64,000 bases of DNA from Flavobacteriales bacterium (GTDB taxonomy: Bacteria > Bacteroidota > Bacteroidia > Flavobacteriales_F > PHOS-HE28): positions 2,707,982 through 2,771,981 of the forward strand of contig CP064979.1 in NCBI GenBank assembly GCA_016699575.1, in the 5' to 3' direction. Positions 31,572 through 64,000 of the stretch are shown here, in pieces; the stretch's first letter is position 1; the number at the start of each line of letters is the position of its first letter. The notes under the pieces are model-generated. The model ran no database searches. It saw only the letters and a list, made by a program, of their open reading frames with translations, and had not been told where the DNA came from. The position numbers and the translations under genes are program-made.

Positions 31572-31574
31572 TCC

Positions 31575-34003: not shown

Positions 34004-34017
34004 GAGGCAGATGAAAT

Positions 34018-34128: not shown

Positions 34129-34131
34129 CCC

Positions 34132-41718: not shown

Positions 41719-41794
41719 ACCCACTCCGGCACGCGATCGGATTTGTCATCCCGAGCGCAGTCGAGGGGTACTTTCGGCCGCCGCAACCACCGCC

Positions 41795-42829: not shown

Positions 42830-42840
42830 GGCAGGACCGG

Positions 42841-42880
42841 AACGAAGAAGGCCCCCGAGTTGTCGGGGGCCTTCTTCGTT
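42841..42880. terminator. perfect 18-bp stem hairpin between convergent genes (putative bidirectional terminator)
   Basis: AACGAAGAAGGCCCCCGA-gttg-TCGGGGGCCTTCTTCGTT, between the EEP stop (42829) and the T9SS-cargo stop (42894). Confidence 0.6.
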
Positions 42881-42893
42881 GTTAGAGCTCTGA

Positions 42894-44234: not shown

Positions 44235-44282
44235 GCGTTGGGCGCGTTGAAGGGTTGGTGTTGGGCTGTCCGGGCGTGGCGA

Positions 44283-45614: not shown

Positions 45615-45617
45615 GGA

Positions 45618-48152
45618 TCAGAAACTGAAGGTGGCCATCACGAAGAAGGTGCGGCCGTACATGTAACTGTAGCGGTTCGGGAAGCGGTCCACGTCCTGGC
45701 GGTCGAAGCGCAGTTGCTCGAAGCCGCCGGTGATGAAGTCCGTTACATTGAAGAGGTTGTTGATGTTGGCGTTGACGGCGAAGCGGTACTTGCGCTTGAA
45801 CATCCAGCTCTTGCCACCGTAGATGTCCACGATGAACGCGCTGTTGAGCTTCTCCTGTTCGAGCAGTTTTTCCACCTGCGGATCGTCCTGCACGAAGATC
45901 TCCGTGGCTTCGGCCGTGCGGCGTGCAGGGTTCGGGTCCAGGTAGATGTCGTCGAAGTAGTTGCCGTTGGCGCCCACGAACCAGAATTTGGGTGCACTGT
46001 ACTTGAGGCCGATGCTCGCGGCGGTCTGCGGCATGCCGCCCACGCGGTAGTTCTTCCAGTAAACGGTACGGTCGCTCGCCAATACTTCGCTGCTGTTGTC
46101 GCGTGTTGCTGTCGCTTGCGGACGGCTGCTGTAGAGGTATTGCCCCCCTGCGTACACAGCGGTCATCGTCCATGTTGCGGTGATGTTGGCCTCGGCGCCG
46201 AGCTCCACGCCCATGTGCGTCTGGTCAACCCCGCTCATGGTGTAGTTGACGATGGTGAGGAACTCCTCGTTGAAGAAACTGCGGCTCCAGATCTGGTCCG
46301 TGAACTTCGTCCAGTAACCAGTCAAGCGCCCTTTGATGCGCGGGGCGCGAAGGATGTAGTTGATGTCGGCGCTGGTGACCTTCTCGTTGGTGAGGCCGTC
46401 GATCACGCCATCCTGGTTGCGCGCGCTCAGGTACGACCAGCGGGGAGCAGGCGGCCGGGTCATGTACGCGGCATTGGCGGATACGTAGTGACGGCCACTG
46501 ATCTTGTACACGGCACCGCCCTTCAACCCGTAATGGAAGAAGCTGTGCGTTCCGCCCTTGCCCTTGCTGCTGGTGGGGAAGCGGCCGTTGGCCACGTTGC
46601 CTTCGCGGAAGAAACTGGTGTTCGCGAGGTTCAGGCCCAGGTACACCTCCAGTGTGCGCCACTTCTGCTCGAACTGGCCGAAGGCGTTCAGGTTGCTCAC
46701 GTGCAGTTCATAGTCGTAGCCGAAACGATCGCCCACGCGCACCACACGGTTGGGGTTCTCGATGTCGTTCTGTGCCGCGTTCGGGTCGTCCTGGTCCAGC
46801 TCCGCGAACTGGTTCAGGTCGAGCCAGTAGTCGCCGCCCAGCAGGTCCTTCACCACCTTGAAATTGTGCGTCACCTGCTTGTTCCAGCTGATGCCGGCGG
46901 TGATGTGGCCGTTCTCTTTCCAGGGCTTGTTCCACACGCTGTTGATGCCCCAACGCGTGGGGTCGTTGCGCTGCTCTTCCACGATGTACTTGCTGCGCAT
47001 GCCCGTCACGTTGTTCCCAACAATGCCATCGGCGTTCACCACCGTGTGCAGGTTCTTGCTGTTGGCGAAGTAGAGCTGCTCCCAGTCGATCTGGCGCACA
47101 TTGTCGTCGCTGCCCCAAAGGCTCGCCAGTTGCGCGGCGTAGGCCGGGTCGGTCTGGTCGTAGTAGCTCGGCAGGTAGCGGTAGTAATCGGGGCGGGGGT
47201 CCTTGGCGTCGAACCAGTTCAGGTTGGTAAGGCCATCGCGACCGAATGTGTAGACCACGCTCGTCTGCACTTTGCCCTTCTTGTCCAGGTCCCAGTTGTG
47301 CGTGAGCAGGAACACGGGCTTGTGGTCGTGGCTCATCCTTGCGTTGCGCTTTTCGCCATCCTGGTAACCCCAGTTCGGGTTGTAATAGTTGGTGCCAGTG
47401 AGATCATAGATCTCTTGGATGGCAGCGCCTTGGCGGCCTTGGATGATAGGCGCGCCGAAGTAGGTGAAGTTCAGGCTCTGCTTCTCGGTGAGCTTGCGCT
47501 CCACGGCCAGGAAGTAGGCCCAGGCATTGTAGCTGGTTCCGTCCACGTATCCTTCCTCGGCCCAACGGCGGCTGCCGCTCACGCTCAGTGCCCAGCCATT
47601 GCTCTGCATGCCCGTGTTATAGGTCACCATCACGCGGTTACGGTAGCTGCGGTTGGTGAAGGCCACCGAGGTGCGCAGGCCCTTGCGCAGGTGACCGGCG
47701 CGCAGGCCGATCTCCGTGTGCCCGCCTATGCTGCCGAAGGTCTCGCGGCTCGCTGCCACACCGTTGTGCACCCGCATCCAGCGGGTAACGTCGTTCAGGC
47801 CGCCCCAGAGGGTCCACGGCGCGAAGCCGCTCTCCAGGTCGTTGATCATCACGCCGTTCAGCGTCACAAGCGTGTTCTCGCCGTCGTAGCCGCGGATACG
47901 GAACCGTGCGTTGCCGAAGTTGAAGCCTGCCGTGCTGGTGAACACATCGCGGGAGCTTTGCAGCACACCACTGATGTCCTGGGCGCCCAGGGCCGCATCG
48001 AGCTCCTGCGCATCCATGGTGTACATGGGTGCGCGGGAGGCGCCGCCGGCCGTGTCGGCGGGCATGTACAGGGTGGTATCGATCTGCGCCAGAACGCCCA
48101 AGGCCGGGCCGAACGAAGCGAGCAAGAGGAGCGAGCGTACAGAACGGATCAT
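45618..48152 (-). CDS. TonB-dependent outer-membrane receptor
   Basis: Start MIRSVRSLLLLASFGPALGVLAQ (track ORF extends to 48329 through a non-Met start). Plug region TLVTLNGVMINDLESG, a >700-aa barrel, C-terminal FSF. Confidence 0.85.
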   Translation of the reverse strand: MIRSVRSLLLLASFGPALGVLAQIDTTLYMPADTAGGASRAPMYTMDAQELDAALGAQDISGVLQSSRDVFTSTAGFNFGNARFRIRGYDGENTLVTLNGVMINDLESGFAPWTLWGGLNDVTRWMRVHNGVAASRETFGSIGGHTEIGLRAGHLRKGLRTSVAFTNRSYRNRVMVTYNTGMQSNGWALSVSGSRRWAEEGYVDGTSYNAWAYFLAVERKLTEKQSLNFTYFGAPIIQGRQGAAIQEIYDLTGTNYYNPNWGYQDGEKRNARMSHDHKPVFLLTHNWDLDKKGKVQTSVVYTFGRDGLTNLNWFDAKDPRPDYYRYLPSYYDQTDPAYAAQLASLWGSDDNVRQIDWEQLYFANSKNLHTVVNADGIVGNNVTGMRSKYIVEEQRNDPTRWGINSVWNKPWKENGHITAGISWNKQVTHNFKVVKDLLGGDYWLDLNQFAELDQDDPNAAQNDIENPNRVVRVGDRFGYDYELHVSNLNAFGQFEQKWRTLEVYLGLNLANTSFFREGNVANGRFPTSSKGKGGTHSFFHYGLKGGAVYKISGRHYVSANAAYMTRPPAPRWSYLSARNQDGVIDGLTNEKVTSADINYILRAPRIKGRLTGYWTKFTDQIWSRSFFNEEFLTIVNYTMSGVDQTHMGVELGAEANITATWTMTAVYAGGQYLYSSRPQATATRDNSSEVLASDRTVYWKNYRVGGMPQTAASIGLKYSAPKFWFVGANGNYFDDIYLDPNPARRTAEATEIFVQDDPQVEKLLEQEKLNSAFIVDIYGGKSWMFKRKYRFAVNANINNLFNVTDFITGGFEQLRFDRQDVDRFPNRYSYMYGRTFFVMATFSF

Positions 48153-48352
48153 GGGTGGCGGACGTCGGGCGGCTTTCTGAAAGGGCGCCAAATGTAGCCC
48201 GCTGCTTGCCCCGGCTAAGGCCGAGTTGTTCACCGTTGCGCTAAGGCTGTGCAAAGGATCCGTGCACCGCCCGACTTGCGTAACTCGTCTTCCACCGGCG
48301 TCGACAGCGCCCCCCCGCGGGCGATACATTCGACGGCTTTTCCCGGCCCCTC

Positions 48353-51300
48353 ATGGCTTTCCCCTCCATGCCCGCCTTCCGAAGCGTCCTCCTGGCCGCA
48401 CTATTGGGCTGCGCCAGCGGGTTGAGGGCCGGCCACTTCGCCGGGGGCAACATCACGTACGAGTGCCTTGGTGGAACCAGCTACGAGGTGACGCTTGATC
48501 TCTTCCTGGATTGCTCGGGGGCCGCCATGATCCCCCAGGACCTCAATTTCCAAAGTGATTGCGGCGTCAGCTTCTCCCTGAACTCGCTGCCTGCACCCGT
48601 GCCCACCGAGGTGAGCCAGCTCTGCGCGGCGGAGATCCCGAACAGCACCTGCAACGGCGGTGCCTTGCCAGGCATTGAACACTACCAGTTCACCGTGGTG
48701 GTGAACCTGGCGGCGTGCAACGACTGGACGATCAGCTGGGATCTCTGCTGTAGGGCAGGCACCAACAACCTCATGGGCGTGCCGGGGATGTACGTCTCCG
48801 CCAACCTGGACAATGCAACAGCGCCCTGCAACAACAGTCCTGTCTTCACGGATTACTCCATCCCTTACGTGTGCGTGGGCCAACCGGCCAGCTACAACTA
48901 CGGCATCACCGAGCCCGATGGCGACAGTATCACGTATGCGCTGATCTCCGCATTACAGAACGTAGGCGTGCCGGTGCCTTACCAAGGTGGATTCACCGGC
49001 GCGGTGCCGATCCCGGGTGTGGCGCTCGACACACAAACCGGCCAGCTGACCTTCACCCCGCCCAACATCGGCAACTATGTGGTGGCGGTGCTCGTGAACG
49101 AGTACGATGCCAATGGCGTGCTCATCGGCCAGGTGATGCGCGACCAAATGTTCATCGCCATCGCATGCACCGGAAGCACACCAACGACAACGGGTATTTC
49201 CGGCGTCACCGGTCCCGCGGGCACTTACCTGGTGACGAGTTCCAACAGTATCGAGATCTGCGATGGTGCCAACGTGTGCGTTGATGTGGAGTTCACCGAC
49301 GTTGACCCGGCAACCACCATCCAGGTCGTATCCCAAGCGGCCACGTTGCTTCCTGGCTCAACCTTCACCATTACCGGCACCAACCCGGCAGTGGCCACCA
49401 TTTGCTGGACGGCCAACATCAACAACTCACCGGTGAACGTGCTCATCCAGGCGGATGATGGCGCGTGCCCGATCGAGAACACCGTCAGTACGTCCATCAA
49501 CTTCGTGGTGACGCAGCCGCAGGCCGGTGCCTTCGATCCGGGGACGAACGGTAGCATCACCGTGTGTGAGAACGTTGCACCCTTTCCGCTGTTCGGCGAA
49601 CTGGGCGGAACGCCGGATGCTGGTGGGACTTGGACTGCACCGGGCGGTGCCGCTCACAGCGGTACGTACGATCCTTCCGTTGATGTGCCCGGTGTGTACA
49701 CCTACACGGTGGGCAATGCCTGTGGCGGCGCCAGTGCAACTGTTACCGTGACGGAGAACCCGCTGCCGAACGCTGGAACCAACGGGAATCTGCAGGTGTG
49801 CGATAACGCAGGCCCTGTTGCATTGTTCAGCGGTTTGGGCGGCGCGCCTTTGGTGGGTGGGACCTGGACGGCCCCAGGCGGAGCAGCACATGGTCCCAAT
49901 TACGATCCGGCCAGCGATGTGCCTGGCGTGTACACCTACACGGTGAACGGTGTTGCACCCTGTGTCACTGCTTCGGCAACCGTAGCGGTGACCGAAGTGG
50001 CCCCACCGAACGCCGGAACCAACGGATTCTGGACGCTCTGCGGACAGACCGGTACTGTGAACATGTTCCTGGCCTTGGGCGGAGCGCCGCAAGCAGGTGG
50101 CACATGGACCGCTCCCGGTGGCGTTGCTCACGGCGCGATCTACGATCCGGTGGTCGACAATCCCGGTGTGTACACCTACACTGTTCCGGGCACCGCGCCG
50201 TGTGCTGCTTCCTCCGCCACTGTAACTGTTACAGAGAATCCCGCGGCGAACGCCGGTTCTAACGGGGCCATCACCATCTGTTCCACCAGTGCGCCGTTCG
50301 TGCTGTTCGCACAGCTGGGCGGAACGCCCGATGCTGGCGGAACATGGACCGGCCCCGGTGGCGCTGCGCATGGCCCGAACTACAACCCGGCAGTGGACGG
50401 TAGCGGTGTATACACCTACACTGTTGCAGGCATTGCGCCCTGCCTGAACTCAGTGGCCACGGTCACTGTCACGGAGAACGCGGCGCCGAACGCAGGAACG
50501 AACAACGCGATCACGGTGTGTTCCAACGGAGCGCCTGTTTCGCTTTTAGGCTCACTCTTGGGCGGTCCATCGGCCGGTGGCACATGGACCGATCCCGGTG
50601 GGGTGGCCCACGGTGCGCTCTACGATCCGCTGGTTGACGCTCCCGGCGTTTACACCTACACCATTCTTGGCAACGCTCCTTGCGCCAATGCCTCGGCGAC
50701 CATCACCGTAACGGAAACCACCGCTCCCAATGCCGGTACGAACGGAGTGCTGACCGTGTGCGCGAACAGTGCTGCAACTGGTCTCTTCGCTTCACTTGGT
50801 GGTGCGCCGCAAGCTGGCGGAACATGGACAGCCCCAGGCGGCGCAGGGCACAGCGGCACCTACGATCCTGCGGTGGATGCACCCGGCGCATTCACATACA
50901 CTGTTGCTGGTGCACCTCCCTGCGCGAACGCGACGGCAACGGTGACGGTGACGGAGAACGCACCGCCGAACGCTGGCACGAACGGAGCACTAACGGTCTG
51001 CGCCAACAGTGCTGCAACAGGTCTCTTCGCTTCACTTGGTGGCGCGCCGCAAGCAGGCGGAACATGGACTGCACCCGGTGGCGCAGCGCACAGTGGTACG
51101 TATGACCCGGCGGTGGATGCACCGGGCGCATACACATACACCGTCGCTGGACCGGCGCCTTGCGCGAACGCGACGGCAACGGTGACGGTGACCGAGAACG
51201 CACCGCCGAACGCTGGCACGAACGGAGCACTAACGGTCTGCGTCAACAGTGCTGCAACAGGTCTCTTCGCATCGCTCGGCGGTTCGCCGCAAGCAGGCGG

Positions 51301-54300
51301 AACATGGACCGCCCCAGGCGGCGCAGCGCACAGCGGCACCTACGATCCTGCGGTGGATGCACCCGGCGCATTCACATACACTGTTGCTGGTGCACCTCCC
51401 TGCGCGAACGCGACGGCAACGGTGACGGTGACGGAGAACGCACCGCCGAACGCAGGCACGAACGGAGCACTAACGGTCTGCGCCAACAGTGCTGCAACAG
51501 GTCTCTTCGCTTCACTTGGTGGCGCGCCGCAAGCAGGCGGAACATGGACTGCACCCGGTGGCGCAGCGCACAGCGGTACGTATGACCCGGCGGTGGATGC
51601 ACCGGGCGCATACACATACACCGTCGCTGGACCGGCGCCTTGCGCGAACGCGACGGCAACGGTGACGGTGACCGAGAACGCACCGCCGAACGCTGGCACG
51701 AACGGAGCACTAACGGTCTGCGTCAACAGTGCTGCAACAGGTCTCTTCGCATCGCTCGGCGGTTCGCCGCAAGCAGGCGGAACATGGACCGCCCCCGGCG
51801 GTGCAGCGCACAGCGGCACGTATGATCCGGCTGTTGATGCACCCGGGGCATACACATACACTGTCGCTGGACCGGCGCCTTGCGCGAACGCGACGGCAAC
51901 GGTGACGGTGACCGAGAACGCACCGCCGAACGCTGGCACGAACGGAGCACTAACGGTCTGCGCCAACAGTGCTGCAACAGGTCTCTTCGCATCGCTCGGC
52001 GGTTCGCCACAAGCAGGCGGAACATGGACCGCCCCCGGCGGTGCAGCGCACAGCGGCACGTACGATCCGGCCGTTGATGCACCCGGTGCGTACACATACA
52101 CCGTCGCTGGAACGGCGCCTTGCGCGAACGCAACGGCAACGGTGACGGTGACGGAGAACGCACCGCCGAACGCTGGAACGAACGGCGTGCTTACGCTTTG
52201 TGCGAACAGTGCTGCATCAGCGCTCTTCGCTTCACTTGGTGGCGCGCCGCAAGCAGGCGGAACATGGACTGCACCCGGTGGTGCGGCTCACAGTGGCACG
52301 TATGATCCGGCTGTTGATGGCGCCGGTGCATACACATACACCGTTGCTGGTACACCGCCTTGCGCGAACGCCACGGCAACGGTGACGGTGACCGAGAACG
52401 CACCGCCGAACGCTGGCACGAACGGTGTGCTGACCGTGTGCGTGAACGGTGTCGCGACCGGTCTCCTCACATCGCTTGGTGGTGCACCGCAAGCCGGTGG
52501 AACATGGACCGCCCCCGGTGGTGCAGCACACAGCGGCACGTACGATCCGGCTGTTGATGGGCCTGGGGTTTACACCTACACTGTTGTCGGCGCTGTGCCA
52601 TGTGCTGATGCTGTTGCCACGGTTTTGGTAACTGAGAATGCTGCTCCGGATGCCGGGATCGACGGTGCGCTTGTGGTCTGCTCCAACGGTCCAATGGTCG
52701 GCTTGATCGCTTCGTTGGGTGGTGCACCCCAAGGAGGAGGTGTGTGGACGGCCCCAGGTGGGCTCGCGCATTCCGGCAACTACGATCCGACCGTGGATGG
52801 TCCAGGCGTATACACCTATTCGGTTTGGGGCACCGCACCCTGTGCAGTTGCCACAGCTTCGGTCACTGTCACCGAAAACGTTCCACCCTCTGCAGGTACG
52901 AACGGCGGGTTGTCCATATGCTCCAATGGAGCACCCACGGGGCTGTTCTTTTGGCTGGCAGGGGCCCCGCAAGCCGGTGGGACCTGGACAGCGCCTGGTG
53001 GTGCGGCGCACAGCGGTACGTACGATCCAGCGGTCGACATGCAGGGTGCATATACCTACACGGTCCTTGGGTCGGCACCCTGTGCGGATGCCAGTGCCAC
53101 CGTAACGGTCACGGAGAATGCGGCTCCCGATGCCGGAGCCGATGCTGTGCTGACCATCTGTTCCAGCGATGGGCCACTGGCACTCTTCACCTTGTTGGGT
53201 GGCGCGCCGCAACCAGGTGGCAGCTGGACGGGTCCGGGTGGCACGGCGCATAGTGGCACGTATGATCCCGCCGTCGATGCCACGGGTGCCTACATGTACA
53301 CCGTTGTTGGGTTGCCCCCGTGCGCCAATGCAACTGCCACCGTTACGGTGACGGAAGTCGCTGCCGTTGATGCTGGTGCGAACGGAGCGCTGAGTGTTTG
53401 CGCAAGCACCCCGGCTGTTGCACTGATCAGTAGTTTGGGGGGGGCTCCTGGTGCAGGTGGCTCGTGGACCGCGCCGGGCGGTGCCGCACACAGTGGTGTC
53501 TTCGATCCAGCGGTGGATGTGGCAGGCAACTACACGTACACGCTGTTAGGAACTGCACCCTGTCCCGATGCCGCTGCTGTGGTGGCTGTCACCATCGCGC
53601 CGGCTCCGGATGCCGGCGGTAGTGCTGGGTCCCTTGCTTGCAGCGACGGGCCAGCAATGGACCTCTTCCTTGGGTTGACCGGAGCACCTGATGCAGGTGG
53701 GACGTGGACCGCGCCAGGTGGTTTGGCGCACTCGGGCTTGTACGATCCACTGGTCGATGCTCCGGGGGTCTACACCTACACCGTACCAGGAACACCGCCG
53801 TGTGCGAACGCAAGTGCCGGTGTTACGATGATGGAAGTGGCACCTGCCAACGCGGGCATTGATGCGGCGTTCGCGGCTTGTGCCACCGGTGGGGCAACGA
53901 ACCTGTTCCCATTGTTGGGTGGTGCCCAACCCGGTGGAACATGGACCGCTCCGGGCGGTGGTGCGCACAATGGCTTCTTCGATCCCGCGGTGGATCTTGC
54001 CGGTGCATATGCATACACCGTTCTTGGAAATGCTCCGTGCCCGGACGACGTGGCTGTGATCACTGTCGTGATCACGGCAACACCGGATGCCGGTACGAAT
54101 GGAACGCTGACGCTGTGCGAAGACATGGCGCCAACGTCGCTCTTCGCGGCGCTCGGTGGCGGCCCGGATGCCGGGGGAACATGGACCGATCCCAATGGCA
54201 ATGTGCATGGTCCAACGGTCGACCCGACCGTTGACCCCAGCGGTGTGTACACGTACACTATCGCGGCGGTGCCGCCCTGCTTGGGTGACGTCAGTACCGT

Positions 54301-57300
54301 CACGGTGTCCATTAACGCATTGCCTGATCCCGGCACCAACGGTTCACTCACCGTGTGCGACCAGGGTGCTCCGCAACCGCTCTTCGCCGCGCTCGGTGGA
54401 AGTCCGGACGCTGGAGGAACGTGGACCGATCCCAACGGCAACGCACACAGTGGCAGCATCGACCCGAGCATTGATCCAGCAGGCAACTACACCTACACGG
54501 TGAACGGAACAGCGCCATGCGGCAGTGCAAGTGCGATCGTTTCTGTAACGATCACCGGCTCTCCCACCGCTGGAACAGACGGAGCTTGGACCTTGTGCGA
54601 GGACATGGCGCCAACGTCGCTCTTCGCGGCGCTCGGTGGCGGCCCTGATGCCGGGGGAACATGGACCGATCCCAATGGCAATGTGCATGGTCCAACGGTC
54701 GACCCGACCGTTGACCCCAGCGGTGTGTACACGTACACTATCGCGGCGGTGCCGCCCTGCTTGGGTGACGTCAGTACCGTCACGGTGTCCATTAACGCAT
54801 TGCCTGATCCCGGCACCAACGGTTCACTCACCGTGTGTGACCAAGGCGCGCCACAATCGCTCTTTGCCGCGCTCGGTGGAAGTCCGGACGCTGGAGGAAC
54901 GTGGACCGATCCCAACGGCAACGCACACAGTGGCAGCATCGATCCGAGCGTTGATCCCGCGGGCAACTACACATACACCGTGAATGGCACAGCGCCGTGC
55001 GGCAGTGCAAGTGCGATCGTTGCTGTATCGATCACCGGCTCTCCCACCGCTGGAACAGACGGAGCTTGGACCTTGTGCGAAGACATGGCGCCGACATCGC
55101 TCTTCGCGGCCTTGGGTGGTGGCCCTGATGCTGGCGGCACATGGACCGATCCGAACGGCAATGCACACAGCGGCACTATTGATCCCGCAACGGATCCTGC
55201 AGGGATCTACACGTACACTATTGCGGCTGTTCCACCTTGCCTTGGAGATGTGAGCACAGTTACGGTCACCATCAACGCGCTGCCCGATCCCGGCACCAAC
55301 GGCGCGCTCACCGTGTGCGATCAAGGAGCGCCGCAGTCGCTCTTCGCCGCGCTTGGTGGAAGTGCGGACGTCGGTGGCACATGGACTGATCCCAACGGCA
55401 ATGCACACAGCGGCAGCATCGACCCGAGCATTGATCCGGCGGGCAACTACACCTACACCGTGAATGGCACAGCGCCGTGCGGTAGTGCTAGTACGGTCGT
55501 TGCAGTAACGATCACCGGCTCTCCCGATGCGGGAACAGATGGCGCATGGACCTTGTGCGAAGACATGGCGCCGACGTCGCTCTTCGCGGCGCTCGGTGGC
55601 GGCCCTGATGCTGGCGGCACATGGACCGATCCGAACGGCAACGCACACAGCGGCACGGTCGACCCCGCCAATGATCCCGCTGGTGTCTACACGTACACGA
55701 TCGCAGCCGTTCCACCGTGCTTGGGTGATGTCAGCACAGTGACAGTGACGATCAATGCGCTTCCTGATCCCGGCACCAACGGCGCGCTCACCGTGTGCGA
55801 TCAAGGTGCTCCGCAAACGCTCTTCGCGGCGCTTGGTGGAAGTCCGGACGCAGGCGGAACATGGACGGATCCCAACGGCAACGCACACAGCGGCAGCATC
55901 GACCCGAGCATTGATCCAGCGGGCAACTACACCTACACCGTGAATGGCACAGCGCCATGCGGCAATGCCTCCTCTGTTGTTGCAGTCACCATTTCCGGTT
56001 CACCGAACGCGGGCACCAATGGTGCGTGGACGCTCTGTGAGTCCTTCGCTCCAACGTCGCTCTTCGCAGCACTCGGCGGCGGCCCTGATGCCGGGGGAAC
56101 ATGGACCGATCCCAACGGCAATGCGCACGGTCCAACGGTCGACCCGACCGTTGACCCCAGCGGTGTGTACACCTACACCATCGCTGGTGTACCCCCCTGC
56201 CCAGGTGATGTGAGCACGGTGACCGTTACCATCAATCCATCGCCGGATGCGGGTCTGGATGGAGCGTTGACGGTGTGCGATCAGGGAGCATCACAATCGC
56301 TCTTCCCCGCGCTCGGTGGAAGTCCGGATGCCGGTGGCACATGGACCGATCCCAACGGCAACGCACACAGTGGCAGCATCGATCCGAGCGTTGATCCGGC
56401 GGGCAACTACACCTACACCGTGAATGGCACAGCGCCGTGCGGTAGTGCAAGTTCGGTCGTTGCAGTAACGATCACCGGATCGCCCACTGCTGGAACAGAT
56501 GGCGCATGGACCTTGTGCGAAGACATGGCACCAACGTCGCTCTTCGCAGCGCTCGGCGGCGGCCCTGATGCCGGGGGAACATGGACCGATCCCAACGGCA
56601 ATGCGCACGGTCCAACGGTCGACCCGACCGTTGACCCCAGCGGTGTTTACACCTACACCATCGCTGGTGTACCCCCCTGCCCAGGTGATGTGAGTACAGT
56701 GACCGTCACCATCAACCCATCGCCGGATGCGGGTCTGGATGGAGCGTTGACGGTGTGCGATCAGGGAGCATCACAATTGCTCTTCCCCGCGCTCGGTGGA
56801 AGTCCGGATGCCGGTGGCACATGGACCGACCCGAACGGCAACGCACACAGCGGCAGCATCGACCCGAGCATTGATCCGGCAGGCAACTACACCTACACGG
56901 TGAACGGCATCGTGCCATGCGGCAGTGCTAGTGCGATCGTGGCCGTAACGATCACGGGATCGCCGAACGCGGGCATCATGGGTGTGCTCACCGTTTGTGA
57001 GAACGCTGCGATCACCGATCTTTTCTTGTCGCTAGGTGGCACTCCTGATGCGGGTGGTGCATGGACCGATCCCAATGGGAACATGCACAGCGGGCAGTTC
57101 GATCCGGCAAATGATCCGCAGGGCGGTTACATCTACACCATTTCCGCTGTTCCACCCTGTCTCGGCGCATCCGCTGGTGTGAATGTCTCTGTTGAGGCGC
57201 TTCCGGACGCAGGGACCGACGCAAGCAACACGTTCTGCGAGAGTTGGGGCGCTGTCAACTTGTTCAACGAACTGGGCGGCGCGCCCACCGGCGGCGGTAC

Positions 57301-59662
57301 TTGGGCCGACCCCAATGGCGACCCGTTCGTTGGCCTTTTCAACACCGGATCATCGTTGGTGGGTGCCTATACCTACACGGTCGTGGGCGTTGTTTGCCCA
57401 GGCGATCAATCGACCGTGACGATCAACGTGGTGCCCGATCCCGACGCCGGAGTGAACAACATGATCACGGTGTGCGCCACCGCTCCCGGGTTCACGATGC
57501 TCGATTCGTTGCTGGGCACCCCCGACAATACGGGCACATGGTTCGATGCGAACAGCGTAGCGGTGGCGCCGATGTTCGATCCTGCCTTCGACCCAGCAGG
57601 TGTTTATACCTACGTAGTTCCGGCACCTGCGACCTGTCCTGGTGCACCACCAACATCAACGCTCACCGTCGCTGTGGATCCCGTACCCGATGCCGGCCTC
57701 GATGCAGCCATCACCGTGTGCACCGGCGATGCGCCTTTCGCCCTCCTTGCACAGTTGGGCGGAAGCCCCGATGCCGGTGGAACGTGGACCGATCCCAACG
57801 GCGTTGCGTTCGGTCCAGTTTTCGACCCTGGAACGGATGCGCCAGGCAATTACACGTACACGGTCGGTGGCGGTGCATGTCCCCCGGACCAGAGCGTGGT
57901 CGCTATCACCGTGAACCCCGGTCCGGATGCGGGCCTCGACAACGCCATCGCCCTTTGCAGCAACGGCGCGCCCATCCAACTTACCGGCGCGCTGCTCGGA
58001 ACGCCGGACCTCAACGGTTCATGGACCGATCCCAACGGTGTTGCGTTCGGTGGAACGTTCGACCCCAGTGCTTCGCAACCGGGCGTGTACGCCTACACCG
58101 TGCCCGGCAACGCGGGCTGCCCCGATGATGTCGCTGAACTGACCATGGCCGTGAGCCCGGAAGCCGATGCGGGCACCAACGGTGTTGCGCAATTGTGCAG
58201 CAACGACGCGCCGGTGGACCTCTTCACCTTGCTAGTTGGTACACCGGATGCAGGTGGGGCATGGGTTGATCCCAACGGCATTGCCACCACCGCGGTCATG
58301 GACCCGAGCAATGCACTGAGCGGAGCCTACACGTACACGGTGACAGGCCTTCCGCCGTGCGCCAACGCCACCGCGAGCGTCTCTGTTACCATCACACCTG
58401 CGCCCGATGCGGGTGCTGATGCGATTGCGACCTACTGCAACACCTCGCCGCCAGTTCAGCTCTTCGGGTTGCTGGGTGGTGCACCGCAAACAGGGGGCGC
58501 CTGGACCGATCCGAACGGGAACCCGAGCGGTGGTGCTTTCGATCCAGCGAATGATACGCCCGGCGCCTATACCTATCGTGTGGTCGGACAGGGCAATTGT
58601 GTCGATGACGCATCAGTGGTGACGGTGAACGTGAGCATCGCCGCCGATGCTGGAAGCGACGGCAGCATCACCGTGTGCAGCAACGATGCCGCCTTCACGC
58701 TCTTCCCGCTGCTCGGTGGAAGTCCGGATGCAGGCGGCACTTGGACGGACCCGAACGGGACAGCGATGAACGGTACCGTGGATCCCTTCACTGCTGTCGG
58801 TGGCGACTACACCTATACCGTGAATTCACCAGTGCCGTGTGCGGCGCAGAGCGCGGTGGTGACCGTCACCATCATCCCCAACAACGCACCTGGGATCACC
58901 ATCGACATCGGGAATGGATGCGCGCCTGTGCTGGCCAGCATCACCAGCAGCTATACCGGGCCGGGCACGTGCGTGTGGGACCTCGGCAACGGCACCAGCG
59001 TCAACGAATGCGAGCCTGATTCCATCGAATACCTAGCGGGCACCTACGACCTTTCCGTGACGATCGATCCCGGGAACGGGTGCAACGGCACCTTCACGTA
59101 CACGGATGCAGTGGTGGTGGTTGATCCGCCCACCGCATCCTTCTACGCACTGCCCGATACGCAGGTGAGCATTGCCAACACCGAGGTCTTCTTCGCCAAT
59201 ACCAGCTCCGGCGCCAACGCATGGCTGTGGCAGTTCGACAGTCTGGACGAAAGCACCACGGAGAACCCACTGTACGTGTTCCCCAACGAAGAGCCCGGCG
59301 AGTACGAGGTCTGTCTGGTCGCATACGCATCAGCAACATGCGCCGACACAGCCTGCCATACCATCATCGTTGTGGGCAGCGGCGTGTGGGTGCCGAACAG
59401 CTTCACACCCGATGGTGACGGCCACAACGACTTCTTTTTCCCGGTCCTGGGAAACCCATCACCGGAAGAATACCGCTTCGCGATCTTTGATCGTTGGGGC
59501 CAGCCGCTCTTCGACACCACCGACCCTGCGCAAGGCTGGGACGGCAGTTTCGTTGATGGCCAGCAGACACCGCTCGGTGTCTACATCTGGAAACTCTGGA
59601 TGCGCGAACCCTTCACCAGTGATAGGGTGGAGCGCACTGGGCATGTGACGTTGGTGAGGTGA
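48353..59662 (+). CDS. giant (3769-aa) SprB-like cell-surface adhesin: signal peptide, ~350-aa Cys-rich N-terminal domain, 39 tandem ~80-aa Ig-like (HYR/SprB-type, family unverified) repeats, two PKD-like domains, T9SS type-B (gliding-motility-associated) C-terminal domain
   Basis: Single uninterrupted ORF. Repeat consensus N(A)GTNG.LTVC.......LF..LGG.P(D/Q)AGGTWT.P.G.AHSG.YDP..D..G.YTYTV.G..PC.....TVTVTE. C-terminus VPNSFTPDGDGHNDFFFPV...FAIFDRWGQPLFDT......WDGSF.....P.GVYIWKL matches TIGR04131-type CTD. Confidence 0.9.
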   Translation: MAFPSMPAFRSVLLAALLGCASGLRAGHFAGGNITYECLGGTSYEVTLDLFLDCSGAAMIPQDLNFQSDCGVSFSLNSLPAPVPTEVSQLCAAEIPNSTCNGGALPGIEHYQFTVVVNLAACNDWTISWDLCCRAGTNNLMGVPGMYVSANLDNATAPCNNSPVFTDYSIPYVCVGQPASYNYGITEPDGDSITYALISALQNVGVPVPYQGGFTGAVPIPGVALDTQTGQLTFTPPNIGNYVVAVLVNEYDANGVLIGQVMRDQMFIAIACTGSTPTTTGISGVTGPAGTYLVTSSNSIEICDGANVCVDVEFTDVDPATTIQVVSQAATLLPGSTFTITGTNPAVATICWTANINNSPVNVLIQADDGACPIENTVSTSINFVVTQPQAGAFDPGTNGSITVCENVAPFPLFGELGGTPDAGGTWTAPGGAAHSGTYDPSVDVPGVYTYTVGNACGGASATVTVTENPLPNAGTNGNLQVCDNAGPVALFSGLGGAPLVGGTWTAPGGAAHGPNYDPASDVPGVYTYTVNGVAPCVTASATVAVTEVAPPNAGTNGFWTLCGQTGTVNMFLALGGAPQAGGTWTAPGGVAHGAIYDPVVDNPGVYTYTVPGTAPCAASSATVTVTENPAANAGSNGAITICSTSAPFVLFAQLGGTPDAGGTWTGPGGAAHGPNYNPAVDGSGVYTYTVAGIAPCLNSVATVTVTENAAPNAGTNNAITVCSNGAPVSLLGSLLGGPSAGGTWTDPGGVAHGALYDPLVDAPGVYTYTILGNAPCANASATITVTETTAPNAGTNGVLTVCANSAATGLFASLGGAPQAGGTWTAPGGAGHSGTYDPAVDAPGAFTYTVAGAPPCANATATVTVTENAPPNAGTNGALTVCANSAATGLFASLGGAPQAGGTWTAPGGAAHSGTYDPAVDAPGAYTYTVAGPAPCANATATVTVTENAPPNAGTNGALTVCVNSAATGLFASLGGSPQAGGTWTAPGGAAHSGTYDPAVDAPGAFTYTVAGAPPCANATATVTVTENAPPNAGTNGALTVCANSAATGLFASLGGAPQAGGTWTAPGGAAHSGTYDPAVDAPGAYTYTVAGPAPCANATATVTVTENAPPNAGTNGALTVCVNSAATGLFASLGGSPQAGGTWTAPGGAAHSGTYDPAVDAPGAYTYTVAGPAPCANATATVTVTENAPPNAGTNGALTVCANSAATGLFASLGGSPQAGGTWTAPGGAAHSGTYDPAVDAPGAYTYTVAGTAPCANATATVTVTENAPPNAGTNGVLTLCANSAASALFASLGGAPQAGGTWTAPGGAAHSGTYDPAVDGAGAYTYTVAGTPPCANATATVTVTENAPPNAGTNGVLTVCVNGVATGLLTSLGGAPQAGGTWTAPGGAAHSGTYDPAVDGPGVYTYTVVGAVPCADAVATVLVTENAAPDAGIDGALVVCSNGPMVGLIASLGGAPQGGGVWTAPGGLAHSGNYDPTVDGPGVYTYSVWGTAPCAVATASVTVTENVPPSAGTNGGLSICSNGAPTGLFFWLAGAPQAGGTWTAPGGAAHSGTYDPAVDMQGAYTYTVLGSAPCADASATVTVTENAAPDAGADAVLTICSSDGPLALFTLLGGAPQPGGSWTGPGGTAHSGTYDPAVDATGAYMYTVVGLPPCANATATVTVTEVAAVDAGANGALSVCASTPAVALISSLGGAPGAGGSWTAPGGAAHSGVFDPAVDVAGNYTYTLLGTAPCPDAAAVVAVTIAPAPDAGGSAGSLACSDGPAMDLFLGLTGAPDAGGTWTAPGGLAHSGLYDPLVDAPGVYTYTVPGTPPCANASAGVTMMEVAPANAGIDAAFAACATGGATNLFPLLGGAQPGGTWTAPGGGAHNGFFDPAVDLAGAYAYTVLGNAPCPDDVAVITVVITATPDAGTNGTLTLCEDMAPTSLFAALGGGPDAGGTWTDPNGNVHGPTVDPTVDPSGVYTYTIAAVPPCLGDVSTVTVSINALPDPGTNGSLTVCDQGAPQPLFAALGGSPDAGGTWTDPNGNAHSGSIDPSIDPAGNYTYTVNGTAPCGSASAIVSVTITGSPTAGTDGAWTLCEDMAPTSLFAALGGGPDAGGTWTDPNGNVHGPTVDPTVDPSGVYTYTIAAVPPCLGDVSTVTVSINALPDPGTNGSLTVCDQGAPQSLFAALGGSPDAGGTWTDPNGNAHSGSIDPSVDPAGNYTYTVNGTAPCGSASAIVAVSITGSPTAGTDGAWTLCEDMAPTSLFAALGGGPDAGGTWTDPNGNAHSGTIDPATDPAGIYTYTIAAVPPCLGDVSTVTVTINALPDPGTNGALTVCDQGAPQSLFAALGGSADVGGTWTDPNGNAHSGSIDPSIDPAGNYTYTVNGTAPCGSASTVVAVTITGSPDAGTDGAWTLCEDMAPTSLFAALGGGPDAGGTWTDPNGNAHSGTVDPANDPAGVYTYTIAAVPPCLGDVSTVTVTINALPDPGTNGALTVCDQGAPQTLFAALGGSPDAGGTWTDPNGNAHSGSIDPSIDPAGNYTYTVNGTAPCGNASSVVAVTISGSPNAGTNGAWTLCESFAPTSLFAALGGGPDAGGTWTDPNGNAHGPTVDPTVDPSGVYTYTIAGVPPCPGDVSTVTVTINPSPDAGLDGALTVCDQGASQSLFPALGGSPDAGGTWTDPNGNAHSGSIDPSVDPAGNYTYTVNGTAPCGSASSVVAVTITGSPTAGTDGAWTLCEDMAPTSLFAALGGGPDAGGTWTDPNGNAHGPTVDPTVDPSGVYTYTIAGVPPCPGDVSTVTVTINPSPDAGLDGALTVCDQGASQLLFPALGGSPDAGGTWTDPNGNAHSGSIDPSIDPAGNYTYTVNGIVPCGSASAIVAVTITGSPNAGIMGVLTVCENAAITDLFLSLGGTPDAGGAWTDPNGNMHSGQFDPANDPQGGYIYTISAVPPCLGASAGVNVSVEALPDAGTDASNTFCESWGAVNLFNELGGAPTGGGTWADPNGDPFVGLFNTGSSLVGAYTYTVVGVVCPGDQSTVTINVVPDPDAGVNNMITVCATAPGFTMLDSLLGTPDNTGTWFDANSVAVAPMFDPAFDPAGVYTYVVPAPATCPGAPPTSTLTVAVDPVPDAGLDAAITVCTGDAPFALLAQLGGSPDAGGTWTDPNGVAFGPVFDPGTDAPGNYTYTVGGGACPPDQSVVAITVNPGPDAGLDNAIALCSNGAPIQLTGALLGTPDLNGSWTDPNGVAFGGTFDPSASQPGVYAYTVPGNAGCPDDVAELTMAVSPEADAGTNGVAQLCSNDAPVDLFTLLVGTPDAGGAWVDPNGIATTAVMDPSNALSGAYTYTVTGLPPCANATASVSVTITPAPDAGADAIATYCNTSPPVQLFGLLGGAPQTGGAWTDPNGNPSGGAFDPANDTPGAYTYRVVGQGNCVDDASVVTVNVSIAADAGSDGSITVCSNDAAFTLFPLLGGSPDAGGTWTDPNGTAMNGTVDPFTAVGGDYTYTVNSPVPCAAQSAVVTVTIIPNNAPGITIDIGNGCAPVLASITSSYTGPGTCVWDLGNGTSVNECEPDSIEYLAGTYDLSVTIDPGNGCNGTFTYTDAVVVVDPPTASFYALPDTQVSIANTEVFFANTSSGANAWLWQFDSLDESTTENPLYVFPNEEPGEYEVCLVAYASATCADTACHTIIVVGSGVWVPNSFTPDGDGHNDFFFPVLGNPSPEEYRFAIFDRWGQPLFDTTDPAQGWDGSFVDGQQTPLGVYIWKLWMREPFTSDRVERTGHVTLVR
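49500..58880 (+). repeat. coding tandem-repeat array, 39 x 240 bp, with higher-order 480-bp units that are >=99% identical at DNA level in two blocks (50.70-52.42 kb and 54.06-56.95 kb)
   Basis: Direct comparison: 50941-51180 vs 51421-51660 differ at 2 of 240 nt; 54110-54350 vs 54590-54830 are near-identical. Confidence 0.85.
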
Positions 59663-59672
59663 TGGGCTTCCC

Positions 59673-60593
59673 ATGGACCTGACGCGGTTCATAACAACAG
59701 TGGCTCTTGTCGGCGGGGTACTTGTCGCGCATTCGCAACCCTGCAGTGCTGGCGACCTGAAGAAGTTGGAGCGTCGGATGGACAAGAGCGATGTGGCATG
59801 TGGCGCGCATATAGCGTACGCCATAGCGCAGTGCTACAGGGACGTGAACGATTCGCTCTGGAAGCACTGGTTGGGCGAGGCCATTCGTCTGCGCAAGGCT
59901 TGTATGCAGTGCTTGAACATGGCCGACCGCATTGATCAGATCAGCAGCATCGCGAAGTGGTACCTGGAATTGGGGGACGAGACGAACTCCGAACTATGGG
60001 CGGAGAAGTGGACCAAGGTGGAATGCGAAAGCAACGAGCCGCATTACCATTTGGCCAAAGTGTACCTCCATCAAAACAAGCGGAAGGAAGCCCTTGCGGG
60101 ATTCCGGGTTGCCCAGAAGAAGGGCGGAAAGCAGGAAGACTTGTCCAGGCACATCGCTCACCTCGATTCGTTGTTCAACTACCCCGTTACCGTACGGCTC
60201 CTACAAGATGTTGAGTTGACCGGGCGAGTGGTGGATCTCGACTCCACGCAGCATTCCATCCAGCGTTGCAGATCTGAGCACGGTTGGGATTTCATCTGCA
60301 CCATCGATGGGCGGCCCTTCTTCGGCATGGACACTGGGAATGAGCCTCCGCGGAACGAGTTCGTATTCCTCTACCTGACCCTTGCTGGCCAGCGCATCGA
60401 CCTCGACGTGTCCGGCATGTTCAACCCGTGTTGGGATGGCGTTATCGATCAGGGTATGTTCGATTGGCAATTTATCGAGAGCGGCTATCTGCTCCGTGGT
60501 TACTTCAGCGACGGTGCCGGTTCCTACATCGCGGAGTGGACCATTATCGGTGGGTCGTCCATGCGTACGCGGATCGAGCGGTTCAGTCCATAA
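59673..60593 (+). CDS. hypothetical Cys-containing secreted protein encoded 11 nt downstream of the giant adhesin
   Basis: 306 aa, N-terminal hydrophobic segment (FITTVALVGGVLVAHS), 12 Cys, no beta-barrel-like C-terminus. Not PorP/SprF-like. Confidence 0.55.
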   Translation: MDLTRFITTVALVGGVLVAHSQPCSAGDLKKLERRMDKSDVACGAHIAYAIAQCYRDVNDSLWKHWLGEAIRLRKACMQCLNMADRIDQISSIAKWYLELGDETNSELWAEKWTKVECESNEPHYHLAKVYLHQNKRKEALAGFRVAQKKGGKQEDLSRHIAHLDSLFNYPVTVRLLQDVELTGRVVDLDSTQHSIQRCRSEHGWDFICTIDGRPFFGMDTGNEPPRNEFVFLYLTLAGQRIDLDVSGMFNPCWDGVIDQGMFDWQFIESGYLLRGYFSDGAGSYIAEWTIIGGSSMRTRIERFSP

Positions 60594-60620
60594 CACGGAA
60601 CAATGGGTGTGTGAACTCAT

Positions 60621-61403
60621 GTGAACCGGACGCACTTACAAGCAGCGCGCCCCGGCCCCCCTCTATCTTCGGCCGCCTTCCCGCAGCCCGTGCCCGAACG
60701 CCTCGTCATCATCCCCACCTACGATGAGAAAGAGAACATCGAGGACGTGCTCACGCGCGTTTTCGGGCTGCAACCGGAGTTCCAGGTGCTGGTGGTGGAC
60801 GACGGAAGTCCGGACGGTACTGCGGACATCGTGAAAGACCTTATGGCCCGCTGGCCTGGGCGCCTGCACCTGATGGAGCGCAAGGGCAAGCTCGGGTTGG
60901 GCACCGCCTACATCGCAGGTTTCAAGTGGGCACTGGAGCGCAACTATGCGTTCATCTTCGAGATGGACGCGGATATGAGCCACAACCCCGACGACCTAAT
61001 CCGACTGTACAACGCTTGCGCTCAGGAGGGCGTGGGTATGAGCGTTGGCAGTCGTTATGTGCGCGGCGGCAGCGTGCGCGACTGGGCGTGGCACCGCGTG
61101 GCCATCAGCTGGTGCGCGTCGCTGTACGTGCGTACGGTTTTGTGGCTGGGCGTCATGGACACCACCGCCGGTTTCGTTTGCTACCGGCACGGCACCTTGG
61201 CCCAGCTCGATCTCGATGCCATCAAGTTCATCGGCTACGCGTTCCAGATCGAGATGAAGTACCGCGTGAAGCGCAAGGGACTGCGTATCGTGGAGGTGCC
61301 CATCACTTTCGTGGATCGTGTTAAGGGCCGCAGCAAGATGAGCCTCAACATCTTCAACGAAGCCTTCATCGGCGTGCTGAAGATGCGTGCGACGGTGAAG
61401 TAG
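60621..61403 (+). CDS. GT2-family polyprenol-phosphate mannosyl/glycosyltransferase (Dpm1-like)
   Basis: IIPTYDEKENI, VVDDGSPDGT, the Dpm1-type D.D motif (EMDADMSHNP), VCYRH. Start may be an alternative codon near VPERLVIIP. Confidence 0.85.
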   Translation: MNRTHLQAARPGPPLSSAAFPQPVPERLVIIPTYDEKENIEDVLTRVFGLQPEFQVLVVDDGSPDGTADIVKDLMARWPGRLHLMERKGKLGLGTAYIAGFKWALERNYAFIFEMDADMSHNPDDLIRLYNACAQEGVGMSVGSRYVRGGSVRDWAWHRVAISWCASLYVRTVLWLGVMDTTAGFVCYRHGTLAQLDLDAIKFIGYAFQIEMKYRVKRKGLRIVEVPITFVDRVKGRSKMSLNIFNEAFIGVLKMRATVK

Positions 61404-61446
61404 GGAGGGTGCTCGAACGAGGCCCAGGCGGTTCCCGGTCCATGGA

Positions 61447-62454
61447 TTACCGGACCAGGGCGACGCTCTGGGTCCTGGTCGAGGGTCCATTGGCCAAGAC
61501 CACAGTGTAAGCGCCACCGGGCAGTGCGCTCAGGTCAAGGGTGCCTTGCGGCCGCACCAGTTCGTTCACCACTACACGGCCAGCGGCATCCATTACACTG
61601 CACACGGCAGGGCCGGATGCGAGCAGGCCAAAATGCCCCGGAGTGCTGATGGGAACAAGTGCAAGCTGCTCCGGTGCAGGCGGCACATCCGCCGAGGTCG
61701 TGCCGTTCAAACAGAACTTCATATCGCGTTGAACACGGCCCACCAAGGTGCCGTTCCTGTATTCGTTCACGTTGATCAGGATGACATAGGCGCCGATGAT
61801 GAACGGGTCCTGGAACTGGAACAGTCCGGAGCTCAGGTCCACCCAGCTCGTGTCGCCGGGCGGGCTCAGTTCATGGGGCATGTCGTAGCCGAGCATCACG
61901 TTGCAGAAGTTCCCTGACGGGGTCCCCAATGTGATGGCCAAGCTGTCACCATCGGCGTCAACAGGCGTGGTCTCATGGATCAGTGTGTTGCCGTTGAAGT
62001 ACACATAGGTCTGCGGTGAGGTGAGCCGCACGGAACTATTGTAAGTGAAGGGGCTGCTGGCGTTGATGATGCCACGGACGCAGATGCTCTGGTTGGTGGG
62101 GAAGGGGATGTTGATCACGTCGGCGCTCCGCACGGAAAGCTCAATGCCGATGGGGTATTGCCCTGCAGCGGCATAGGTGTGCTGCCCGGTATAGATCAAG
62201 CGGTAAGAACAACAGAACGACGGTAGCGTGTCGATCTGTGCAAGCGTCATCGGCGCAGTGTTGCCATCGCCCATTTCCAGGTTGTAGGTCGAGGGATTGA
62301 TCGTACTACTGGCGTAGATGTGCAGCTCGAGGTTGTACATCAAGGCAGTCATATGGTCATGGTAGATCTCGGCGCCGCACAAATGGGAGGCTGATGCGGA
62401 CGCACTGAAAAGGGACGATGTGGCCAGCGCGGCAACGACAGGAAGAGTGCGCAT
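61447..62454 (-). CDS. secreted protein combining the giant adhesin's N-terminal Cys-rich domain with a T9SS type-A C-terminal sorting domain
   Basis: Signal peptide MRTLPVVAALATSSLFSASASA. HLCGAEIYHDH..LELHIY // DADGDSLAITL // YVILINVNEYRNGTLVGRVQRDMKFCL align with HFAGGNITYEC..VTLDLF // EPDGDSITYAL // YVVAVLVNEYDANGVLIGQVMRDQMFIAIAC of the giant protein. C-terminal ...GAYTVVLANGPSTRTQSVALVR is Por_Secre_tail-like. Confidence 0.75.
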   Translation of the reverse strand: MRTLPVVAALATSSLFSASASASHLCGAEIYHDHMTALMYNLELHIYASSTINPSTYNLEMGDGNTAPMTLAQIDTLPSFCCSYRLIYTGQHTYAAAGQYPIGIELSVRSADVINIPFPTNQSICVRGIINASSPFTYNSSVRLTSPQTYVYFNGNTLIHETTPVDADGDSLAITLGTPSGNFCNVMLGYDMPHELSPPGDTSWVDLSSGLFQFQDPFIIGAYVILINVNEYRNGTLVGRVQRDMKFCLNGTTSADVPPAPEQLALVPISTPGHFGLLASGPAVCSVMDAAGRVVVNELVRPQGTLDLSALPGGAYTVVLANGPSTRTQSVALVR

Positions 62455-62513
62455 GGAGGGTTGGTGTTGGGGCCCACGGTTGACGTTCCTGCGCATCCAA
62501 GCGTTGCACAGGC

Positions 62514-63782: not shown

Positions 63783-63790
63783 GGGCCGGC

Positions 63791-64000
63791 CTAGTAGATG
63801 TAGAAATCGTCCGCCATCCGCTTGAAGATGGGCAGCGTCCAGCCCGCACGGATCCCGTAGAGCATGTCCTTGCGCGTGCCGGTTTCCGTGGTGCGCGTGT
63901 CGAAGTTGAAGGCCCGCAACGGCTCGGTGAACCCCAAGATCGTCTCGAACGTGATCTGGAAGTTGATGAGCCGCTTGTTGCCGATGTGCTGGTAGCCTGC
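63791..64000 (-). CDS. 3' end of an upstream gene (C-terminal fragment ...TRKDMLYGIRAGWTLPIFKRMADDFYIY*), possibly an outer-membrane protein
   Basis: Own reverse translation of 63791-64000 gives an open frame ending in a stop at 63791-63793, 8 nt before the waaA start. No family call. Confidence 0.35.
   Translation of the reverse strand, partial: AGYQHIGNKRLINFQITFETILGFTEPLRAFNFDTRTTETGTRKDMLYGIRAGWTLPIFKRMADDFYIY

Follow-up and report, generated by a model that had tools for sequence, protein, structure and literature searches.

Giant adhesins exported by type IX secretion systems (T9SS) govern attachment, gliding, floc formation and prey capture in the Bacteroidota. To our knowledge, SprB and GhpA are the only ones among them that have been studied in depth so far. 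Here we describe a gene found at positions 48353 to 59662 on the plus strand of a 64,000-nucleotide stretch of DNA (hereafter the window) from an uncultured Flavobacteriales bacterium (GenBank assembly GCA_016699575.1, contig CP064979.1, positions 2,707,982 to 2,771,981). Its sequence identifies it as a real gene for a giant surface-fibre protein. The product is probably a fibrillar adhesin that is exported by the T9SS, anchored in the outer membrane and roughly 150 nm long, a length estimated by allowing 3.5-4 nm for each of 44 sandwich domains.

Proteins whose C-terminal domain (CTD) is of type B pass from the T9SS translocon to PorP/SprF-like barrels and stay attached uncleaved, as described for the pairs PG1035-PorP and SprB-SprF (PMC9143113). 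In Flavobacterium johnsoniae, the gene for the shuttle protein is adjacent in nine of 12 type B substrates, and the three orphans share the remote Fjoh_1677 (PMC12618676). Predicted complexes of cognate pairs in this species reached ipTM values above 0.8 (PMC12618676). The type B substrates of this species include the mobile SprB and Fjoh_4750 and the static Fjoh_3952, and the CTD of Fjoh_1123 is mostly static as well (PMC12618676).

SprB and the protein described here are both giant and repetitive, share export by Sec and the T9SS, and end in a domain of the TIGR04131/PF13585 family, these features being predicted in the present case. By analogy, the anchorage of SprB on a PorP-like barrel would be the expected mode here too (PMC9143113). 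SprB is larger (6497 versus 3769 amino acids (aa)), and the stalk of the new protein is made of an unnamed 80-aa Ig-like unit, not of SprB repeats (PF13573). The sprC-sprD-sprB-sprF operon is also not matched, the neighbours being a divergent gene for a TonB-dependent receptor, an orphan open reading frame (ORF) and a family 2 glycosyltransferase (GT2) gene. A first-pass annotation made from the DNA sequence had likened the protein to SprB and RemA. This comparison holds for the overall architecture but not for the repeats or for the presence of a sprF/porP-like gene in the window, and thus, as far as sequence can tell, 'SprB-like' is a valid description of architecture only and the protein lies outside the SprB family.

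The second studied case is GhpA, the grappling-hook protein of Aureispira sp. CCB-QB1 (PDB 9flp and related entries; bioRxiv 10.1101/2024.01.29.577165). In outline, the present protein would work as SprB and GhpA do, but it is a member of neither family. Profiles of its repeat and head show no similarity to the GhpA fragments in PDB (E>0.1), and the likeness is one of fold only. The tip of GhpA is much larger than the head found here, and every Ig domain of GhpA is glycosylated, whereas the corresponding sequon is nearly absent from this stalk. In addition, no homologues of the PorP (ghpB) and PorE (ghpC) genes lie downstream of the adhesin gene.

Comparable in genomic setting are the F. johnsoniae orphans (Fjoh_1123, Fjoh_1720, Fjoh_4934), served by the shuttle Fjoh_1677, which likewise are predicted adhesins with a type B CTD and no adjacent porP/sprF-like gene (PMC12618676). 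In sequence, the public relatives HMU14189.1 and MCW5899457.1, both from metagenome-assembled genomes (MAGs) of Flavobacteriales, and WP_308347155.1 from Marivirga salinae carry the same 80-aa repeat family and are low in Lys and Arg. They differ from the window protein in unit number, the HMU14189.1 cluster being represented by a 3028-aa protein with 30 matched units, MCW5899457.1 having 28 and WP_308347155.1 having 24, and none is experimentally studied according to its annotation. A Pfam scan finds CHU_C in the Marivirga protein too, whose unit number and other domains are different.

Domain organisation of the giant protein

The ORF starts with ATG and comprises 3769 codons and a stop, with zero internal stops, in agreement with the single uninterrupted frame of 11.3 kb reported at first. 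With a G+C content of 62%, the probability of so long a run free of stops arising by chance is ~1e-48. The gene model rests on the ORF list and its translation, together with intact or near-intact syntenic orthologues in other MAGs. All features of the protein described below are encoded on the plus strand.

The first 26 residues (48353-48430; MAFPSMPAFRSVLLAALLGCASGLRA, followed by GHF...) form a predicted Sec signal peptide. The leader has the basic, hydrophobic and small-residue regions of a typical Sec signal, its residues 7-23 are modelled by AlphaFold2 (AF2) as a helix with a low predicted local distance difference test (pLDDT) score, and the homologues have equivalent leaders that end directly before a nearly invariant His28. 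This residue (48434-48436) belongs to a head-family motif, HxxGGxITYxC, and stands after the predicted cleavage site in the alignment. Because it would be residue 2 of the mature protein, a histidine brace of the lytic polysaccharide monooxygenase type is unlikely.

The signal peptide is followed by a Cys-rich head of 365 aa, with 16 Cys within aa 1-391, which is close to the module of ~350 aa proposed previously. This region has zero Pfam matches, and its profile matches none of the PDB chain sequences below E=0.1. An AF2 model based on an alignment of 74 homologues (pLDDT 94.7; predicted template modelling score (pTM) 0.89) predicts three beta-sandwich domains that resemble cadherin, Ig and SraP adhesion domains. 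Domain 1 (aa 27-170; 48431-48862) is a Cys-rich beta-sandwich with all-beta strands between residues 29 and 152 (pLDDT >93) and no Pfam match, and its C54, C91, C100 and C122 are invariant across the 74 homologues. Domain 2 (aa 171-271; 48863-49165) is a putative He_PIG/cadherin-like Ig domain, and domain 3 (aa 272-391; 49166-49525) is Ig-like in the AF2 model. The window copy of domain 3 has no Pfam match; at this position, the homologue P0098 gives a weak score of 20.8 bits with Big_9, under the cut-off of 23.6.

A search with the head yielded 130 homologous proteins with 35-63% identity (120 among the matches listed), and every named one belongs to an uncultured member of the Flavobacteriales or Bacteroidota. 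In the nearest relatives, P0001, P0003, P0004 and P0006, the sequence terminates within the array, and all of these except P0004 are annotated as partial. The head is also present in short proteins of 460-680 aa that end in a CTD of either type A or type B. Complete forms include P0020 (475 aa), with a type A CTD directly after the head, and P0098 (483 aa), with a type B CTD. P0090 and P0036 have two units between the head and a type A CTD, and other homologues combine the head with one or two units and a CTD. The genes for P0098, P0090 and P0020 occur in unrelated neighbourhoods with no receptor gene. As modelled, the head is therefore best described as a conserved, self-standing module of adhesion-molecule-like folds. 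In some of the short proteins (P0036, P0040, P0043, P0048, P0051, P0056 and P0057) the stalk unit has four Cys rather than two (GVYCY...PC...AC), a pattern that suggests a second disulfide in this subfamily.

The stalk (aa 392-3508; 49526-58876) consists of 39 tandem Ig-like units, R1 to R39, delimited at the first of the two Cys in each, and the number agrees exactly with the first count, with the unit count within R6-R13 and R20-R31 being that of the assembly and requiring read-level data for verification. The anchor [YF]xY[TSVR][VIL] occurs 39 times with a spacing of ~80 aa, and the units measure 78-82 aa, with 34 of the 39 being exactly 80 aa long. Ten positions are invariant in 23 non-redundant units (G6, C14, L26, G28, G34, W36, G56, Y58, Y60 and C66), in line with the two Cys, LGG.P..GGTW block and G.YTYTV strand noted before.

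AF2 modelling of R2-R4 in sliding three-unit windows with a homologue alignment (pLDDT 95.4, pTM 0.74) predicts a small beta-sandwich for every unit, with a single short helix and a linker-less junction to the next unit. The predicted structure superposes on solved Ig-type domains, titin among them. Thus, 'Ig-like' is correct at the level of the modelled fold, and the family is unnamed in Pfam and NCBIfam. The tentative naming of the repeats as HYR-like or SprB-repeat-like had to be dropped: PF02494 (HYR) matches neither the whole protein nor single units (E<=10), and PF13573 gives no hit either with the whole protein (E<=0.01) or with single units (E<=10). Even with the threshold relaxed to E<=10, single units have no real match in Pfam, and the unit profile finds nothing under E=0.1 among all PDB chain sequences. 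PKD models match none of the 39 units, and an origin of the unit as a diverged copy of the PKD domains in the same protein was rejected at the sequence level (hhalign probability 0.4% against the C-terminal PKD/CTD alignment). Other than the CTD and PKD-like matches, no Pfam or NCBIfam family is matched by the whole protein.

When a 44-sequence profile of the unit was compared with 1.84 billion representative proteins, 6163 were matched at E<=1e-3, of which 3028 also passed E<=1e-10 and 1003 passed E<=1e-30, with up to 31 units per protein. Named members are called 'gliding motility-associated C-terminal domain-containing protein' and come from Flavobacteriales MAGs and cultured Marivirga species. 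Most of eight members that were scanned lack any Pfam match, and in a distant relative from Marivirga (P0185) a K319L-like_PKD score builds up only when weak stretches are added together. The giant protein is of an ordinary kind, built from two abundant domain families that are absent from Pfam and NCBIfam.

Two PKD-like domains (aa 3509-3595 and 3596-3679; 58877-59389) come after the stalk. Both had been predicted and both are present, though weak: PKD_4 scores 29.3-34 bits on the pair (cut-off 27) and 18.2 and 20.8 bits on the single domains, which are under the cut-off. Their WDLGNG and W.F.. motifs are kept in the orthologues. The C-terminus (aa 3680-3769; 59390-59659) is a type B T9SS CTD, strongly conserved among six orthologues, that exceeds the curated cut-offs of both CHU_C (PF13585, aa 3680-3764; 45.8 bits versus 27) and TIGR04131 (aa 3680-3769; 38.5 bits versus 35). 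By these matches the giant protein belongs to the type B CTD substrate class, and the gliding-motility-type CTD of the first-pass annotation is borne out. A missing type B CTD or a broken frame, which that annotation had named as evidence against its reading, was not found. A protein with a type A CTD is encoded 4 kb upstream (42894-44234), indicating that the organism uses the T9SS.

Evolution and composition of the repeat array

Two parts of the array stand out by their similarity at the DNA level. The first is a homogenised block with a 240-bp period, R6-R13 (50720-52639), in which Tandem Repeats Finder (TRF) reports 7.6 copies of 240 bp at 88% between 50738 and 52559. R7 and R9 are 99.2% identical in DNA, and dN/dS within the block is 0.00-0.11. 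The second is a super-repeat of two units with a 480-bp period in six copies, R20-R31 (54077-56956), for which TRF reports 5.9 copies of 480 bp at 86% between 54114 and 56955. Alternate units in this block (each unit against the next but one) are 81-95% identical in protein (92-95% with the best partner) and 75-93% in DNA, and dN/dS in this block is 0.05-0.18, with dS as high as 1.7. Units outside the two blocks share less than 70% DNA identity.

Near-identical units have dN/dS values of 0.05-0.18 and dS values reaching 0.25-1.7, indicating that the protein sequence of the unit is strongly conserved and that many of the duplicates are old in DNA. The same alternating pattern is present at the same place in the orthologue L005. 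Within one genome, paralogous units share 92-100% identity, compared with 60-71% for orthologous units. On this sequence comparison, the array is a case of concerted evolution or of lineage-specific re-amplification.

A Logan contig of short reads from the same organism (SRR11674035) is 100% identical to the window from 56851 to 64000 and so confirms the terminal 2.8 kb of the adhesin gene independently. This contig begins within R31, where the super-repeat block comes to its end, and the break shows why relatives of this protein usually end truncated.

The array (49526-58876) also differs from its surroundings in composition. Third bases at four-fold sites are close to uniform, with a third-position G+C content (GC3) of 0.61 and an entropy of 1.97 bits, whereas GC3 at such sites is 0.80 in the head, 0.77 in the C-terminus and 0.82 in 18 other genes of the window. 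Codon usage is flattened in the same direction in the orthologues L005 and L006. Avoidance of recombination and balancing of isoacceptors are candidate causes. ORFs of up to 419 aa on the opposite strand or in other frames inside the adhesin gene (49427-50371, 52232-53491, 54824-55888 (-) and others) are by-products of G+C-rich repeats and not genes.

The whole protein contains only one Lys and 11 Arg, seven of these 12 being in the CTD, and R3409 stands alone between aa 264 and 3707. The protein has a net charge of about -270. Low Lys/Arg content is common to the relatives, including that from Marivirga. It implies resistance to trypsin-like proteases, and the stalk would go undetected in tryptic proteomics. 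Over its 3117 aa, the stalk has D[ST][AILVMT], the general O-glycosylation sequon of Bacteroidota, a single time, compared with 15.6 +/- 3.7 times in shuffled sequences, a depletion whose significance is overstated because the units are not independent.

Orthologues and genomic neighbourhood

A scan of one genome per species revealed 15 loci with a head identity of 39-72%, all in MAGs of uncultured Flavobacteriales or Bacteroidota. L005 has an intact ORF of 3589 aa with 37 units, and the 29-unit protein of L006 has about 2950 aa. Three MAGs derived from nanopore reads have a broken frame but keep a span of 9.5-10 kb from head to CTD. The earlier view that the adhesin is lineage-specific can be kept for the combination of head and stalk in one gene, which is syntenic within a clade of uncultured Flavobacteriales, but not for the repeat family, which is large and reaches Cytophagales (Marivirga).

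The gene for the TonB-dependent receptor (45618-48152, minus strand), recognised by a Pfam Plug domain and the annotations of its neighbours, diverges from the adhesin gene. The receptor ORF probably begins at the ATG at 48152, ahead of a sequence resembling a signal peptide, and alignments with homologues of the receptor start only near residue 45 of the longer ORF. The intergenic region (48153-48352), read directly from the sequence, has a match to the Bacteroidota-type -7 box TAnnTTTG on the minus strand (48189-48196) and a copy with one mismatch, TACATTCG, on the plus strand at 48325; both are motif matches only. An invertible or phase-variable promoter was rejected, as the inverted repeats found in this region are only short and imperfect.

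At 12-13 of the loci, genes for a protein with CBM4_9 and a type A CTD, a choice-of-anchor-J lipoprotein and the TonB-dependent receptor lie on one strand, with the adhesin gene divergent. A GT2 glycosyltransferase gene comes after the adhesin gene in all five loci that extend far enough. From these comparisons, simple collinearity seems a better account of the conserved gene order than a functional link, and the receptor cluster is not counted as a functional part of the adhesin system because short paralogues of the head occur in receptor-free contexts. The cluster itself (41564-48152) encodes the receptor, the lipoprotein (choice-of-anchor-J/DUF5689), the CBM4_9 and type A CTD protein (with weak ExeM/NucH similarity) and an endonuclease/exonuclease/phosphatase-family protein. 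Judged by these family matches, it may be a locus for scavenging extracellular nucleic acids or phosphoesters.

The orphan ORF of 306 aa (59673-60593, plus strand) lies between the adhesin and GT2 genes, 10 bp downstream of the former. Its translation has a signal peptide and a weak match to TPR repeats, and its GC3 is 0.73. Among 5.8 billion proteins it has two homologues, both on short Logan contigs. As a candidate PorP/SprF partner it was rejected: there is no match to this family in Pfam or NCBIfam, the TPR match is weak, and the ORF is absent at every orthologous locus.

The remaining genes of the window are chromosomal housekeeping and polysaccharide genes. A surface polysaccharide region (29495-34719) encodes a CpsB/CapC-type phosphatase, dTDP-glucose 4,6-dehydratase, a TviB-like UDP-GlcNAc 6-dehydrogenase, a Gfo/Idh/MocA oxidoreductase and a hexapeptide acyltransferase. 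In the product of another gene (3582-5543, plus strand), a TPR-repeat protein is joined to the catalytic domain of an adenylate/guanylate cyclase. No entry identical to the giant protein, the receptor, the lipoprotein or the 306-aa ORF as delimited here turned up in exact look-ups.

Proposed mode of action and alternatives

If the protein is a T9SS-exported fibrillar adhesin, its signal peptide would direct passage through Sec into the periplasm, where the 44 beta-sandwich domains would fold, probably with one disulfide per stalk unit formed by the two invariant Cys. The T9SS translocon would then recognise the type B CTD, whose membership is clear from the profile matches and whose function is expected from its family. 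From there, the CTD would be passed to an outer-membrane barrel resembling PorP/SprF, whose gene would lie at another place in the genome and which would keep the uncleaved C-terminus at the cell surface, a step modelled on the orphan type B substrates of F. johnsoniae and on PG1035/PorP and SprB/SprF. The 39 linker-less Ig-like units and two PKD-like domains would make a thin, strongly acidic and almost Lys/Arg-free stalk of ~150 nm, holding the conserved three-domain head off the cell as a ligand-binding tip. Differences in stalk length between lineages would arise by unit duplication and concerted evolution, with the units under strong purifying selection.

One set of observations weighs against this scheme. 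The 64-kb window contains no PorP/SprF-like, PorE-like, gld or spr genes, and no PF11751/TIGR03519-type protein is present among its ORFs. The anchoring partner is thus assumed by analogy and not seen in the window. Given that there is no PorP/SprF gene here, the adhesin is read as a putative 'orphan' type B substrate.

As a special form of the same explanation, the protein would be a motility adhesin of the SprB type, in which the type B CTD would couple the fibre to the gliding machinery, carry it along a helical track and propel the cell. This would fit a giant repetitive protein with a type B CTD whose public relatives are annotated as gliding motility-associated. Moreover, the CTD alone sets track coupling in F. 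johnsoniae, where the non-SprB protein Fjoh_4750 also follows a helical path (PMC12618676). However, PF13573 repeats are not found, the window has neither a sprC/sprD/sprF-like operon nor a gld gene, and static type B substrates such as Fjoh_3952, and for the most part the orphan-type Fjoh_1123 CTD, are known. We therefore view a role in gliding as unlikely, though it is the best placed of the alternatives.

Also unlikely, and placed behind a gliding role, is the idea that the protein represents a distinct class of T9SS fibre, namely a rigid, disulfide-stapled, polyanionic, unglycosylated and Lys/Arg-free rod, possibly a multimer like GhpA, in which the flattened codon usage is an evolved safeguard against recombination. 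If this were true, the same head would be displayed near the cell by the short head-CTD paralogues and ~150 nm away by the giant form.

In another reading, parallel chains might pack into a rigid hollow rod whose heads serve as a prey-capture device, as in Aureispira. The absence of detectable similarity to GhpA or to any other PDB chain and of PorP/PorE homologues downstream of the gene argues against such an appendage, as does the size of the head (365 aa versus a hook of ~1400 aa). Whereas GhpA is glycosylated in all of its Ig domains, the stalk has one O-glycosylation sequon where about 16 are expected. In addition, the net charge would work against side-by-side packing of the chains if no cations bridged them. 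A GhpA-like multimer is therefore improbable.

We give even less weight to the fibre being an accessory of the TonB locus that captures a polymer, such as extracellular nucleic acid or a glycan, for the divergent receptor, the lipoprotein and the CBM/nuclease-like proteins. The divergent arrangement is kept in at least 12 MAGs, and some neighbours have weak ExeM/NucH and endonuclease/exonuclease/phosphatase matches. However, synteny reaches unrelated housekeeping genes beyond the adhesin (GT2), which fits collinearity, and the receptor-free contexts of P0098, P0090 and P0020 led us to reject the link as the main explanation.

Finally, that the gene is a pseudogene or an artefact of a mis-joined or mis-counted array is hardly credible: the 84-99% DNA identity among units of the two blocks, the break of the same-organism short-read assembly within R31 and the broken frames in the nanopore-based orthologues L004, L011 and L015 would fit, but the long open frame, the low dN/dS of the units, the perfect match of the final 2.8 kb to an independent assembly, intact giants of similar size (L005, P0122 with 2871 aa and P0280 with 3023 aa) and a head-to-CTD span of 9.5-10.7 kb at five other loci confine the risk to the exact copy number in those blocks.

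As a probable T9SS-exported adhesin, the product of this gene is a clean and complete representative of a family whose members are usually truncated in assembled metagenomes. Many relatives are partial fragments at the ends of contigs, and giant members are consequently under-represented in assemblies. Two families are newly exposed, the 80-aa Ig-like stalk unit, with matches in 6163 representative protein clusters, and the three-domain head of ~365 aa. Curating both would improve the annotation of thousands of proteins from activated-sludge and aquatic Flavobacteriales that are now called 'hypothetical' or bear generic names. Moreover, the orphan type B CTD would provide a natural test of shuttle specificity outside a model organism.

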